From: an uncultured virus (IMG/VR IMGVR_UViG_3300023180_000040)
Taxonomy: Duplodnaviria; Heunggongvirae; Uroviricota; Caudoviricetes
IMG/VR virus record: IMGVR_UViG_3300023180_000040
Location: 57,081 to 77,080 of that record
Direction: 5' to 3' (one strand)
Length of the DNA: 20,000 nt
In this document: positions 4,184-20,000 of the stretch, one piece after another
How the letters are laid out: the number at the start of each line of letters is the position of its first letter
Position numbering within the stretch: the first letter of the stretch is position 1
Notes under the pieces: generated by a model
Told to the model about the DNA's origin: nothing
Database searches by the model: none
What the model saw: only the letters and a program-made list of their open reading frames with translations
Made by a program: the position numbers and the translations under genes

Positions 4184-5034
4184 TTTGGGATAAGTTCATT
4201 AATAATAAAAAACTGAATTATTCTAAACATATTGAATCAGATATTTATTCAGATACAAGTCCTATAACATATAGAACTGTTATTGAAGGAAAATATTCTA
4301 GAATCTTTATGGGGCATCCTAGAATTGTTCCTATTCAAACTTCAAGACCTTATTGGGATCTAAATGAAATCCCTTCATCTTTTAAACAGTTGTCGGCAGA
4401 GTTTGATCATAGCATTGAATATGATGCCACTCTAGAAGAGCAGGTTCCTGTATTTGCCGGAAGGGTTTGTTATCAATCCTTTGGGGACAAGGCAGGACGC
4501 AAAAGTGCTTCTGAATATCTAGAGCATATTATGGAAGTTGGTCATTACTCTATTCTAGAGCATTCAAGTGTTACATTATATTTTGATCGTGTTCCTAGAT
4601 TTTGGAGCCATGAACAAGTAAGGCATCGTCATTTCAATTATTCTCAGTTGTCTCAAAGGTTTTATGTTCCAGACAAGGTTGAGTTAGTTATCCCTCCTGC
4701 TTTGTGGGAAGAAAAAGATATTGAACAGGAGTTTCATGAATATGGGGAAAGTTTGGGCAAGAAGTATTTTGGTAAACTTAATGATCTTTATAACCTTATT
4801 GGTACGGAGTCTTTTTCTCTCAAAAAGAAGAGTAGAGAAGCAGCCAGAGCAATATTACCAGAATGTACAGAAACTAAAATCGTGGTCACAGGAAACTTCC
4901 GATCATGGTACGAGTATCTACAAAAAAGAAATACACCGGAAGCAGACGCAACCTTCCAAGAAGTCGCAAGAATTGTACAATCGCGCCTCGCAAGAATTGC
5001 GCCTCACATATTTAAGGAGGAAGAACGTGGGTAA
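4180..5034 (+). CDS. thyX: FAD-dependent thymidylate synthase ThyX
   Basis: AGRVCYQS, GHYSILEH, signature RHRHFNYSQLSQR, REAARAILP, TGNFRSW. True start could be the ATG at 4309. Confidence 0.96.
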   Translation: MIWDKFINNKKLNYSKHIESDIYSDTSPITYRTVIEGKYSRIFMGHPRIVPIQTSRPYWDLNEIPSSFKQLSAEFDHSIEYDATLEEQVPVFAGRVCYQSFGDKAGRKSASEYLEHIMEVGHYSILEHSSVTLYFDRVPRFWSHEQVRHRHFNYSQLSQRFYVPDKVELVIPPALWEEKDIEQEFHEYGESLGKKYFGKLNDLYNLIGTESFSLKKKSREAARAILPECTETKIVVTGNFRSWYEYLQKRNTPEADATFQEVARIVQSRLARIAPHIFKEEERG

Positions 5035-8926: not shown

Positions 8927-9274
8927 CTAGTAGTAATCATCGTAGTCGCAAGGCTGCGACTCTTTCTCTGCATGATACTTGTAATCGTAGTGCGCTTCAA
9001 GGGCATCTTCATACTCACTTTCTGCCATTTCACAGCACGCATCAAAACTTAGTTCGATCACGATATACTTATCAGCAGCCTCTGGCTCATCCTCAACGAT
9101 TGAGTCATACAACTTTGTCATTTCTTCCTTGCTGCCGAATTCATCGGGAATCCTGTCATAGTTTATGATCTTTTCAGCCTCGGCATCATACTCGTAAAGG
9201 CCAAAGAGTCCACGACTATCAATCTCTTCTGCTGCCTTCTGAAATGGGTATTCTGGCGGGTCATACCAACTCAT
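8927..9274 (-). CDS. Hypothetical acidic protein
   Basis: AGGAGG RBS before ATG 9274 (MSWYDPPEYP...). Confidence 0.75.
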   Translation of the reverse strand: MSWYDPPEYPFQKAAEEIDSRGLFGLYEYDAEAEKIINYDRIPDEFGSKEEMTKLYDSIVEDEPEAADKYIVIELSFDACCEMAESEYEDALEAHYDYKYHAEKESQPCDYDDYY

Positions 9275-9281
9275 AGTGTTT

Positions 9282-9431
9282 CTAATCCTCCTTGATTTCA
9301 GGGACGCAGGAACCACAGTAAGGAAGCCCCTCTGTCCAAGTCACAGCCTTAGTTGCTGGATTGACATAAGTAACATCCTTCTCTGGAATGGTGTGTCCAC
9401 ACATGCATTTGATTGTGTCTGTATTGTCCAT
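9282..9431 (-). CDS. 49-aa zinc-ribbon-like protein
   Basis: GAAAGGA RBS; KCMCGH...PYCGSC; first gene after the tRNA-like RNA. Confidence 0.7.
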   Translation of the reverse strand: MDNTDTIKCMCGHTIPEKDVTYVNPATKAVTWTEGLPYCGSCVPEIKED

Positions 9432-9457
9432 ATTATTTCCTTTCTTTGATAAAGCAT

Positions 9458-9555
9458 AGCCCCTAGCGGGAGTCGAACCCGCGATAAACTTCCGCATAAG
9501 CATCACAAGCGTCCTTGTGTGATACCGGCGTCGTTGCCACTAGACCATTAGGGGC
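9458..9555 (-). ncRNA. tRNA-like RNA without a canonical anticodon arm
   Basis: 7-bp acceptor stem GCCCCTA/TAGGGGC; D arm GTC-TAGTGGCAAC-GAC; perfect T arm GCGGG-TTCGACT-CCCGC. The anticodon region is replaced by a long hairpin. No encoded CCA. Confidence 0.8.
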
Positions 9556-9561
9556 ATAAAT

Positions 9562-9589
9562 ATTATAGACGGTTCCACAGTCAAGTCAA
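9562..9589 (-). promoter_or_regulatory. Sigma70/SigA-type promoter of the tRNA-like RNA
   Basis: TTGACT (9589-9584), 16 nt, TATAAT (9567-9562); G9555 is 7 nt downstream. Confidence 0.8.
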
Positions 9590-9679
9590 GTGGTGTCACC
9601 AAATTGGATCTACACCTACCTGCTCACCCGTCACCGACAACCGATTCCTTTAGTTATTATATTTAGTTATATTATGTAG

Positions 9680-9846
9680 CCCGAACAGATCATTATTCGG
9701 GTTGTTATCACATGGGTCGTATTGCAGGTTTATGTCAGGTCTAGATGGACAACCCCCATGCGTGTTGCCCCCTGCTTTCCCCCGTTGCCACGGAGTTCGG
9801 ATTATCTAATTGGTGGCAACCTCTTAGACTCTCCCATAATCCCGCT
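9680..9846 (-). ncRNA. Putative structured RNA downstream of the hammerhead cleavage site
   Basis: ORF-free; stems GTTGCCAC/GTGGCAAC, GCAGG/CCTGC, GGGCAAC/GTTGTCC and CCCGAA/TTCGGG; loop pairing CGCATGGG/CCCATGTG. Confidence 0.5.
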
Positions 9847-9894
9847 GACGCCTCACGGCGTTTCGTCCTCTTTAGGACTCATCAGAGCGGTTAT
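9836..9894 (-). ncRNA. Type I hammerhead ribozyme
   Basis: CCGCT-CTGATGA-GTCCT(AAAG)AGGAC-GAAA-CGCC(GTGA)GGCG-TC^-AGCGG: complete catalytic core and three perfect stems; GUC cleavage between 9847 and 9846. Confidence 0.95.
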
Positions 9895-10063
9895 TGTTTT
9901 CAAGATCATACTGAACCAAGTTAGCAATTTCAAGTGCCCTACGAATCTCACTCTTAAAACCCGGTGTAATAACAATAGTGTCCTCTGGCTGACTGTCCAT
10001 GCAAATAGCATTTAGCCATCCAATAATTTCAGCAAGTTCTTGTGCCTCTTTTAGTGTAATCAT
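9872..10063 (-). CDS. Hypothetical protein whose last codons form the hammerhead core
   Basis: MITLKEAQEL...NNNRSDES*; codons CGC TCT GAT GAG TCC TAA overlap the ribozyme. Confidence 0.6.
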   Translation of the reverse strand: MITLKEAQELAEIIGWLNAICMDSQPEDTIVITPGFKSEIRRALEIANLVQYDLENNNRSDES

Positions 10064-10108
10064 TATATCAACCCACAAACATAGTCGTCTTGATCTGCAT
10101 TATGTTCT

Positions 10109-10525
10109 CTATCCGTAAACGATGTTTCCGAAAGTAGCAACCTGAACAACAACATCAGCAACATCACCATCAGCGTAACCAGAATCGTCGTTAGCAACAG
10201 CCTGACGAAGATACTCAACGAGATAATCCGCAGCCTGAACCTCGTTGTTGAGAATCTTAGAGATTGCCTCTACAACCTTATCTACATTGACCTCATGAAT
10301 AGTGTCTGCCTCGTCAGGCTCACGAAACTTTACTGAATACCAAATCTCATCAAGAATGTCGCTTGCGTTATTACCCTCACGACTAAGATAGTTTGCCCAA
10401 TAGTTTGCGCTGCCGTAATGGGAATCAAAAGCCGTCATAAGAAGATCACTAACCAACTTGTCCGTAACATTTACAGATACAGTTACCTTACCAACAACTG
10501 TCTTATTCATTTCATTCTCTTTCAT
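10109..10525 (-). CDS. Conserved phage hypothetical protein
   Basis: NYWA motif and C-terminal DGDVADVVVQVATFGNIVYG, recognised as a recurrent phage family; start could be 10510. Confidence 0.75.
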   Translation of the reverse strand: MKENEMNKTVVGKVTVSVNVTDKLVSDLLMTAFDSHYGSANYWANYLSREGNNASDILDEIWYSVKFREPDEADTIHEVNVDKVVEAISKILNNEVQAADYLVEYLRQAVANDDSGYADGDVADVVVQVATFGNIVYG

Positions 10526-10538
10526 TAGATTGCTTAGT

Positions 10539-10591
10539 ATTTTACTCGTATACGTTTTGTTGTCAAGACATAAATGTAATGACTTTGTTAG
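10539..10591 (-). promoter_or_regulatory. Boxed early promoter, copy 4
   Basis: CTAAC AAAGTC ATTAC-N9-TTGACA-16 nt (..GAG)-TAAAAT. Confidence 0.8.
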
Positions 10592-10842
10592 TCCTGCGGA
10601 ATGTCCTTAAACCAATCAATCTCAGAAAGAATCTCATGGTTAATAAACCAATCTACAAAAAGAGTTCCGTCCCTATCATTATCATATCCGACATAGCCGT
10701 TATTAACGTATTCCTGCTCGTAGTCGGAGTCATAATATAGTTCCCAGAACTCGTTAGTATCCATATCGTACATCGCGTCTGCTCGCTCCCGAATCCCACA
10801 ACAAATACGCTTGTAATGCTCATCTGAAATAATCTTAGGCAT
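10588..10842 (-). CDS. Hypothetical acidic protein
   Basis: AAGGAGG RBS before ATG 10842 (MPKIISDEHY). Confidence 0.75.
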   Translation of the reverse strand: MPKIISDEHYKRICCGIRERADAMYDMDTNEFWELYYDSDYEQEYVNNGYVGYDNDRDGTLFVDWFINHEILSEIDWFKDIPQD

Positions 10843-18989: not shown

Positions 18990-19043
18990 AGACTACTCCT
19001 TTCGATTCTCTGCACAAGGGGTATCGTGTAAAGACTTTGTTAG
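18990..19043 (-). promoter_or_regulatory. Boxed early promoter, copy 1
   Basis: CTAAC AAAGTC TTTAC-N10-TTGTGC-16 nt (..GAG)-TAGTCT. Confidence 0.75.
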
Positions 19044-19049
19044 AGGATT

Positions 19050-20000
19050 GAGCCACAACATATCCGCGCGTACAGGCGCACGCACTCGCGCAAATACTAC
19101 ATCTGAATCTCTATGTCAAATGAAGGTTCAGTAAACCGCTTCCTCAATCTCTTTGTGCGGGATTCGCACAAGCGGCCCCTCAATCACTCTAAGCCAATCT
19201 AAGGGGTGCTTATCCTCTTTACAAAGGTATGAAGAATGCCTGCTCACACCAACATTCTGGAATCTCTAGGTATAAGGACACCTAGAACGCTTGTAACAGG
19301 GCATAGAAGGCTTCCTGTGCGTTCTTACATTGCGATAACATCTAAGCGCCCACAAACCTCCTGCAAATCGCACACTTTCTCTAGCCATGTTGGGAAATGG
19401 ATAAGTTCGCAAATACCGACATTTCACCAAACCCCAACACAGAATCACAATCTCACAAATAGTTCAGCCTTCTCTAATACTTCCATCACATTCTCTCGGC
19501 CTTCATAGAATACTTACAGGTATGATGAAAGTATGAGGGGATACCCACGGCGCGGCCCTAATAAATCCATAAAGAATCCATAACAAATAGAACATATATA
19601 GATATGTCACATACTTACAACATACTGAATACAATCGTCATGGATGCGTCACTACTTACATATAACTCAAATACCTGTATTCCCGCATGAATAGAGGGGA
19701 TAGATGTAATACAAGTGTATGTATGAATGGGGGTTATGTGGGGCAAATGTTGATATAAGTGGGGACTTATGTGTGCGCTACTACATGAATCCCCATATGT
19801 CAAGCACTAATACATACATATATGTAGCCAAGTGTAGTGCCGCATATGTAAGTTGCATCTATATTACTTATGTGATAAGGGCCAAGTAGTTGTGCCGTCA
19901 AGTTGTGCCCCCTATCATACTCTCTGGATATACACAAGGGGCACCCCCCTCCCCCCATATCTCTTTTACATTTAGGGTACCCATCTGGGGGGTAGGAGTC
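19050..20000. other. Long non-coding region upstream of the early array
   Basis: No credible ORF; short inverted repeats, AT-alternating tracts and C/G runs. Confidence 0.6.

Follow-up and report, generated by a model that had tools for sequence, protein, structure and literature searches.

An uncultured marsh phage appears to cut an uncatalogued folded RNA out of an early minus-strand transcript

An uncultured marsh phage encodes, directly 3' of a type I hammerhead ribozyme, a structured RNA domain that is real, is conserved and belongs to no catalogued family. We estimate a probability of about 0.6 that positions 9846-9724 of the minus strand are domain I of a stable, hammerhead-released phage non-coding RNA, a reading that comprises the fold as well as the release. 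The fold of domain I, including a kissing-loop interaction, is highly probable when taken by itself, and release by the hammerhead is probable. A first-pass annotation had already proposed a structured non-coding RNA without a known family at this site, and this proposal was borne out by the missing Rfam match, the adjoining hammerhead and the conserved place of the domain in related phages.

Results

Genomic setting and organization of the cassette

The analysed window is the final 20 kb (20,000 nucleotides) of a 77-kb viral record that is estimated to be 48% complete. The record codes for a DnaB helicase, a primase, a DNA polymerase, a UvsX-like recombinase, a large terminase, ThyX and a dNMP kinase, and 11 ordinary tRNAs are found elsewhere in it. 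The best matches of the terminase (36-37%) are those of Rhodococcus phage E3 and large mycobacteriophages, which does not establish the host. We read the small minus-strand ORFs around the RNA element as early genes. A 138-aa ORF at 10525-10109 (minus strand) belongs to phrog_2355, a widespread phage family with 613 representatives at E up to 0.001. At 6627-6589 (minus strand), a GC-rich hairpin followed by a U run lies in a gene-free gap and has a weak Rfam match to the terminator part of RsmZ; it is probably an intrinsic terminator. The end of the record (19000-20000) is gene-poor with short ORFs only and is possibly a terminal or regulatory region.

The RNA element is part of a cassette that consists of a hammerhead, the folded domain I, an AU-rich linker, a conserved hairpin (domain II) and a tRNA look-alike. 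The same order is found in the related loci L179, L182 (identical to L203) and L183. The conserved unit reaches to about 9458, beyond the 9680-9846 delimited in the first-pass annotation, and about 390 nt between the cut and the end of the tRNA-like element are non-coding. The parts outside domain I are the following:

9872-10078, minus strand: upstream small ORF (68 aa from TTG, 63 aa from ATG)
9841-9891, minus strand: type I hammerhead ribozyme (Rfam RF00163, 28.5 bits, E 6e-5)
9643-9723, minus strand: variable linker, made up of a window-specific insert with a hairpin (9701-9680) and an AU-rich stretch with a conserved AACUAA
9568-9642, minus strand: domain II, a variable-length hairpin between the invariant GGUUGUCGGUGAC and UGUGGAACCGUC (in L179 at 4378-4436)
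9458-9555, minus strand: tRNA look-alike detected by ARAGORN, with a 7-bp acceptor stem, a canonical T arm, an aberrant anticodon arm and no encoded CCA

Relatives of the cassette

Three distinct relatives underlie the comparison, namely L179, L182 with its identical twin L203, and L183; L185 is a near-identical sister contig. Alignment of the relatives of the upstream ORF led to three metagenome loci, one of them distinct (L179, a syntenic phage), through which two invariant downstream blocks came to light. The pattern of these domain II blocks retrieved 27 viral loci, including four cassettes (L182, L183, L185 and L203); the other 23 had neither a hammerhead nor a T arm and were dropped. The same pattern gave no match in prokaryote genomes. 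Protein-anchored viral scans recovered the sister contig only, which was also the only real locus among the 3 and 40 found in viral contigs with patterns from the first-pass fold. Four of the five loci matching a T-arm pattern were unrelated tRNA-like genes and were discarded. The blastn searches against an annotated phage collection returned three short matches each, due to the hammerhead, the T arm or chance, and no homolog. The gene downstream of the cassette varies among the relatives.

Neither domain I nor domain II is matched by Rfam, in which no family was found inside 9840-9560 at E up to 10. For the domain of the relatives, Rfam likewise gave no RNA-type match, the single hit being an lncRNA on the opposite strand (L179, E 4.6). 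A description of the motif was not found in the literature searched, subscription papers being outside its scope. It is absent from three of the six supplements of a study of ten thousand candidate viral RNAs (PMC10690425) and could be among the remaining candidates of that study.

Fold of domain I

The minus strand of 9680-9846 has a minimum free energy (MFE) of -58.3 kcal/mol (z -3.33), which was equalled by 1 of 200 shuffles, while the plus strand of the same element does not stand out (z +0.86). The first-pass annotation had noted that G-U pairs mostly favour the minus strand and had proposed folding against shuffled controls as a check. The MFE structure pairs GCGGG-A-UUAUG with CAUAA-A-CCUGC and contains a long hairpin (9834-9799) and a short one (9795-9780). 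It was computed before any homolog was known, and the order of its elements is the same as in the relatives. A homolog-guided nested fold of the window has -52.8 kcal/mol, pseudoknot energies being outside the ViennaRNA model. The features of domain I are:

9724-9845, minus strand: P1, the closing helix (GCGGG/CCUGC, 9845-9841 with 9728-9724; UUAUG/CAUAA, 9839-9835 with 9734-9730)
9799-9834, minus strand: P2, a long hairpin with a 15-nt 5' strand, two 2x2 purine loops and the apical loop UUGCCA (9819-9814)
9780-9795, minus strand: P4, a 5-bp hairpin (CUCCG/CGGGG) with the loop UGGCAA (9790-9785)
9785-9819, minus strand: kissing-loop pairing of UUGCCA (9819-9814) with UGGCAA (9790-9785)
9736-9774, minus strand: P5, CAGG/CCUG stacked on GGGCAAC/GUUGUCC, with the loop ACGCAUGGGG (9763-9754)
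9762-9755 with 9716-9709, minus strand: possible window-specific pseudoknot CGCAUGGG/CCCAUGUG (-11.7 kcal/mol)

The domains of L179, L182 and L183 align well with each other and share a five-way junction that P1 closes at the cut end and that comprises a long P2, a small P3, P4 and P5, with a 6-bp pairing between the loops of P2 and P4. In this fold, 97.7% of 132 cells are paired and seven pairs are changed on both sides, a result reached by 1 of 500 shuffles and resting on a thin sample of three related sequences. P3 is missing from the window domain, and the comparison supports a four-way junction for its product, as opposed to the five-way junction of the relatives with the extra small P3.

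The closing helix P1 is found at the same place in the relatives, and in all four sequences 2 to 4 nt of it come from the 3' strand of hammerhead stem I. Its pair probability in the window is 0.98-1.0 when 9846-9680 is folded, but 0.25 when the folded sequence extends to 9560. This drop is due to a rival long rod (9746-9702 with 9642-9607, minus strand; ACCUGC/GCAGGU and ACGACC/GGUUGU), which competes with both domains and occurs in the window only. P2 is part of the MFE structure (pair probability 0.99) and aligns without gaps to the P2 of the relatives with its loop in register. Its 5' strand has 15 nt in all sequences, and the first loop begins at nt 28 after the cut, compared to nt 30 in the relatives. 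The pair count of the distal P2 stem was not above shuffle level. P4 is flanked by A-rich segments, GAA (9798-9796) and GAAA (9779-9776). All 15 of its cells are paired and three of five pairs are changed on both sides among three distinct rows, with 14 of 500 shuffles as high. P5 has a 7-nt bulge (AUCUAGA, 9746-9740) and its counterpart in the relatives is at the same place; its loop contains (A/G)UGGG in the window, L182 and L183, but not in L179. An 11-codon ORF (MGESKRLPPIR, 9837-9802) inside P1/P2 is absent in the relatives and was dropped as a candidate. The plus strand has ORFs across the element as well.

We regard it as likely, yet not proven, that the window domain is homologous to that of the relatives and shares its fold, because a covariance model of the three relatives misses the window. 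The best local match had 6.2 bits (E 2.4) in a different alignment, and neither of two window-type records (G000 and G001) was matched by this model, which is blind to the kiss. In addition, MAFFT misaligns the full window domain with the relatives, and nearly all P1 and proximal P2 pairs differ in sequence between them.

Kissing loops

The comparison supports that the loops of P2 and P4 kiss via six Watson-Crick pairs. The three distinct relatives have CUACCA/UGGUAG instead of the sequences in the window, which amounts to two compensatory changes: a C-G pair of the relatives is U-A in the window, and an A-U pair is G-C. The kiss is invariant among the three relatives, which leaves two independent sequence states overall. 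Letters common to the window and the relatives are GG-YURCCA-C around the first loop and GAA..UGGYAR..GG-RAAA around the second.

A loose descriptor of two 6-nt hairpin loops complementary to each other is matched, no more than 140 nt from the cut, by all four cassettes and by none of 117 other phage hammerheads (controls among the matches listed). It was defined when the MFE structure of the window was already known, and was loosened after a strict form had missed L179. As for its background, both strands of the 77-kb record (154 kb) contain 15 matches, one of them with A-rich flanks, and 25 of 10000 shuffles are matched, two of 10000 at the same position. Prokaryote genomes gave 17 matches to the kiss pattern, none of which combined the kiss with the 5-bp stem; all were judged to be chance. 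The loops of P4 (UGGYAR) resemble ordinary tRNA D loops. On the minus strand, GTGGCAACG is found both in P4 (9791-9783) and in the D loop of the tRNA look-alike (9540-9532), so that the P2 loop could pair there too, an option absent in the relatives.

Pairings proposed in the first-pass annotation

All complementarities named in the first-pass annotation are present in the DNA, though several play a different part than proposed. Its 8-bp stem GUUGCCAC/GUGGCAAC (9820-9813/9791-9784) persists as a complementarity and not as a nested stem: it is the 6-bp kiss plus one pair on each side, an extension that the relatives cannot form. The hairpin GGGCAAC/GUUGUCC and the last hairpin CCCGAAUA/UGUUCGGG were recovered in the ensemble with pair probabilities of 0.98-0.99. 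The helix GCAGG/CCUGC supposed to enclose the former is equally complementary, but would break the conserved fold and is not conserved in the relatives. For UUAGAU/AUCUAG, we found a pairing worth only -2.4 kcal/mol, which competes with stronger helices, has no equivalent in the relatives and is unsupported.

The proposed loop pseudoknot CGCAUGGG/CCCAUGUG joins strands that are free in the conserved fold and is compatible with it, and it is uncommon by chance: a pairing of at least this energy occurred in 8 of 3000 shuffled linkers and in 4 of 951 genome tiles, before allowing for several testable loops. It lies in the window-specific insert and has no counterpart in the relatives, and a further 8-nt stretch complementary to the CGCAUGGG loop lies within the tRNA-like element. 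A lineage-specific add-on is a plausible reading of this pseudoknot.

A switch between the domain and the ribozyme had been suggested on the basis of GGAUUAU/AUAAUCC. This complementarity exists, but it competes with P1 or P2 and is not conserved in the relatives. A switch via P1 (GCGGG/CCUGC) is structurally possible, as this helix overlaps the 3' strand of stem I in all four cassettes. The computed probability of stem I falls from 0.82-0.94 to 0.05-0.10 in four of four cassettes; values under 0.15 are likewise seen for 55 of the 85 control hammerheads among the matches listed. Since this loss is common among the controls, the calculation is not evidence for a switch.

The multi-pseudoknot topology as drawn was not sustained, as three of its pairings (GCAGG/CCUGC, UUAGAU/AUCUAG and GGAUUAU/AUAAUCC) compete with stronger helices that match the relatives and have no equivalents there. 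Covariation was detected in the domain of the relatives (seven pairs) and in P4. Taken as a whole, the first-pass fold (an 8-bp stem with a 21-nt loop, GCAGG/CCUGC around GGGCAAC, two to three pseudoknots and the GGAUUAU switch) is highly improbable. In its favour, every pairing exists, CGCAUGGG/CCCAUGUG is rarely met by chance and ViennaRNA omits pseudoknot energies; yet its nested part falls short of the MFE structure by 14-22 kcal/mol (-36.2 kcal/mol, or -44.5 kcal/mol when forced and completed, vs -58.3 kcal/mol), and neither the 8-bp extension nor the other pairings have a counterpart in any of the three distinct relatives.

Linker, domain II and tRNA look-alike

The distance from the cut to domain II is 204 nt in the window, 163 nt in L182, 239 nt in L183 and 167 nt in L179. 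At the linker site of the 45-nt insert of the window, L183 has a different structured insert with nested hairpins (1660-1575, minus strand), which indicates that the linker accepts modules. Domain II is the most conserved part of the cassette, its blocks GGUUGUCGGUGAC and UGUGGAACCGUC being invariant in four of four sequences with 25 invariant nucleotides. Its 7-nt bulge UGGAACC recalls the bulge of the T-box antiterminator. In T-boxes, the bulge UGGN pairs with the NCCA end of the tRNA, and a stem I with a specifier loop lies upstream. We rejected a T-box reading, as there was no Rfam T-box match and the bulge is invariably UGGA while the adjacent discriminator is U, A, G and U in the four sequences. 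A sigma-70-like promoter at 9589-9562 was not taken as conserved, its -10 element being absent in L179 and its -35 element in L183.

The tRNA look-alike has a fold z of -2.8 and is conserved in the cassettes; the copy in L179 scores 43.8 bits as a tRNA. Its T arm is tmRNA-like and the discriminator varies. In the window, L182 and L183, a long hairpin with the cap CAAG-GACG-CUUG takes the place of the anticodon arm; the arm of L179 is short. The stretch 9200-10700 contained no terminator-like site.

Hammerhead ribozyme and upstream ORF

The score of the hammerhead (28.5 bits) is below the RF00163 gathering score of 34. The complete core (CUGANGA, GAAA and NUH) and stems I, II and III are present, with the open end at stem I. 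The hammerhead is also found in L179, L182/L203 and L183, where its stems I and III covary, and occurs once per record among the cassette records that could be searched. From the hammerhead consensus, the cut is predicted after GUC, between 9847 and 9846, giving a 5'-OH product that starts with AGCGG. A Shine-Dalgarno sequence plus start codon within 70 nt of the cut is found in none of the four cassettes, compared to 77 of 117 control phage hammerheads among the matches listed. As no cassette hammerhead leads into a ribosome-binding site, a free RNA is favoured over a leader. Some control contigs (L064-L066, L113-L114 and L116-L117) have clusters of two to four type I hammerheads spanning a few kb, mostly with a gene close behind.

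The final codons of the upstream ORF (RSDES-stop) cross the hammerhead core (9890-9872), with the stop inside loop II. An ORF ending in RSDES(L)-stop at the hammerhead is found in three of four cassettes and in 6 of 113 control hammerheads (controls among the matches listed). The stop in or beside loop II in those three cassettes comes from two unrelated ORFs. A ribosome terminating on the upstream ORF could gate hammerhead cleavage.

RNA libraries

Twelve RNA runs share words with 9300-10300, four of which we examined as contigs; the libraries may hold DNA. The predicted product encloses two contigs from different studies, neither of which extends across the cut: one in run X1 (9630-9802) and a single one in run X12 (9632-9831); both are of low depth and reveal neither strand nor ends. 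The X12 contig has three differences, of which the change at 9781 turns a U-G pair of P4 into U-A (one contig, depth 3.5) and the other two are in unpaired positions. Run X2 covers both flanks without the element, and X9 touches the upstream ORF only. The holes and depths of the contigs (11.4 vs 2.5-4 in X1) cannot rank expression. Contigs across 9847/9846 were not seen in the four runs, which proves nothing, nor were back-joints, for which contigs show presence and not absence.

Discussion

The data are consistent with a scheme in which the hammerhead is completed some 115 nt ahead of P1 and cuts after 9847, leaving a 5'-OH according to known hammerhead chemistry. P1 would pair the new 5' end, and the product may then fold as a four-way junction with the P2-P4 kiss, as the comparison with the relatives supports. 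By taking over a strand of stem I, P1 might disfavour re-ligation. In bacteria, 5'-end-dependent decay is carried out by RNase E and RNase J, and a paired 5'-OH end in a compact fold could resist it. RNase P acting at the tRNA look-alike would free an RNA of about 290 nt that comprises domain I, the linker and domain II.

That related phages keep the shape of the domain despite changed letters suggests that the RNA probably has a real job, and a kissing-loop architecture kept across near-total sequence turnover is a mark of selection on three-dimensional shape. Our best guess on this job, which we put forward tentatively, is that of a decoy or scaffold: a stable RNA, made early, would bind a host protein, for example a defence nuclease or a factor of translation or RNA decay, and domain I would be the rigid and protected module at its 5' end. 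A further-reaching and doubtful idea is that the RNA represents a new class in phages, in which a hammerhead matures the 5' end and a tRNA mimic directs maturation of the 3' end. Its kissing domain would self-assemble (in cis, or in trans as oligomers) into a protein-free scaffold and, early in infection, sequester a host factor of translation or of anti-phage defence. Should the decoy or scaffold role hold, the RNA would join the few known RNA-based counter-defences of phages. Most phage hammerheads just precede a gene, while here the hammerhead appears as the maturation enzyme for a separate structured RNA. Domain I is a small (about 120 nt) new fold that carries natural compensatory variants, and a self-releasing, 5'-protected RNA module could help to express stable RNAs in bacteria.

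Several other explanations have to be weighed against this reading. The two loops could pair between molecules, hand in hand, and give rise to dimers, rings or cages as in phi29 pRNA, ROOL and GOLLD, which we consider rather unlikely. P2 (15 steps, about 42 A in an A-form estimate) and P4 (5 bp, about 14 A) are indeed very unequal in length and separated by a 3-nt joint in the window, the P5 bulge contains a self-complementary UCUAGA, and loop pairings in ROOL and GOLLD that had been read from covariation as tertiary later proved to be intermolecular (PMC12286853). However, if the A-rich linkers on both sides of P4 are extended, they could lift it along P2 so that the kiss forms within one molecule. 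The UCUAGA bulge is also not conserved, the Rfam models of pRNA, ROOL and GOLLD were unmatched at E up to 5-10, and the phage has an ordinary large terminase. Of comparable, low probability is a cis-acting stabilising leader, in which cleavage would give the mRNA of the downstream genes (from 9431) a new 5' end, with the folded domains serving to protect or regulate this mRNA. This would fit the close start codons behind most of the listed control hammerheads (77/117), the missing terminator-like site in 9200-10700 and the early transcript of haloviruses HF1/HF2, whose 5' end maps to a hammerhead cut (PMC3088659). It is at odds with the approximately 415 nt, including the conserved domain II and the tRNA look-alike, between the cut and the next start codon and with the exchange of the downstream gene among relatives; the ends of the two RNA contigs at 9630 and 9632 are a weak hint in the same direction.

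The domains of the window and of the relatives might also be unrelated RNAs swapped into the same slot, their likeness being convergent or due to chance. The failure of the covariance model on the window, the differing pairs in P1 and proximal P2 and the missing P3 would be expected from such a swap, and the recurrence of GTGGCAAC in the tRNA-like D loop at 9540 means that P4 could have a local origin. We nevertheless consider a swap unlikely given the shared loop letters, the same loop position and P2 length, and the compensated kiss. Even less probable is that domain I or II is a second self-cleaving ribozyme and that the excised piece is circularised by an RtcB-type ligase, a possibility that the first-pass annotation had proposed to check. 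The 25 invariant nucleotides in two blocks of domain II and the ends of the two RNA contigs within its 5' block could be taken as signs of it, but Rfam matches no ribozyme family except the hammerhead. RtcB was found in none of five records (21-82% complete), although the host might supply one, and the examined contigs, which can show presence and not absence, contain no back-joints. Readings as tmRNA, YrlA or HDV-like, pistol or twister ribozymes had no Rfam support.

Among known systems, the type I hammerheads of phages and prophages (RF00163; Perreault et al. 2011, PMC3088659) include the upstream part of the cassette, which has the full core and lies in an intergenic early region of a phage. 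Most of these lead straight into a gene (77/117, among the matches listed), while here about 390 nt of conserved non-coding structure follow.

GOLLD and ROOL are linked to phage tRNA regions and have a size of 600-800 nt. Both are large non-coding RNAs of phages and prophages in which kissing loops covary (Kretsch et al. 2025, PMC12286853). The RNA described here is similarly structured, having kissing loops that covary and conserved domains set apart by a variable linker, but is far smaller (a domain of about 120 nt, about 290 nt overall) and ribozyme-released. By size (a unit of about 390 nt) and consensus structure (no Rfam match), it does not belong to either family.

The pRNA of phi29 is a domain of about 120 nt that is closed by a helix of its two ends and has two complementary loops and a three-way junction; RNAs of this type form an intermolecular ring on the prohead that is required for packaging. 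The size, the end-closing helix and the two complementary loops are found again in domain I. Its junction, however, is four- or five-way, its kiss has 6 bp, the phage is of the large terminase type, and the Rfam model is unmatched, which places it outside this group. In the lysine riboswitch, a multi-way junction is closed by P1, a 6-bp kiss connects a long hairpin with another, and an expression platform precedes a lysine gene. Domain I has the same P1-closed multi-way junction and 6-bp kiss of a long hairpin with another, yet no loop E or kink-turn was seen, the partner hairpin has only 5 bp, and there is neither an expression platform nor a lysine gene. It is not a lysine riboswitch by Rfam, and the downstream ORFs tested have no Pfam family.

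YrlA Y RNAs are encoded beside a Ro60/TROVE gene and contain a Ro-binding stem. Together with the tmRNA of mycobacteriophages, they are phage non-coding RNAs that mimic tRNA (Chen et al. 2014, PMC4201824). The likeness is to the 3' tRNA look-alike of the cassette, and neither resembles domain I. The YrlA score is 14.5 bits against a cut-off of 69, tmRNA matches the T arm only, and Ro60/TROVE was found in none of five records, all incomplete. Overall, the RNA resembles a ribozyme-matured phage non-coding RNA whose kissing fold is reminiscent of pRNA, ROOL/GOLLD or the lysine aptamer, but it fails membership in each of these wherever this is testable.
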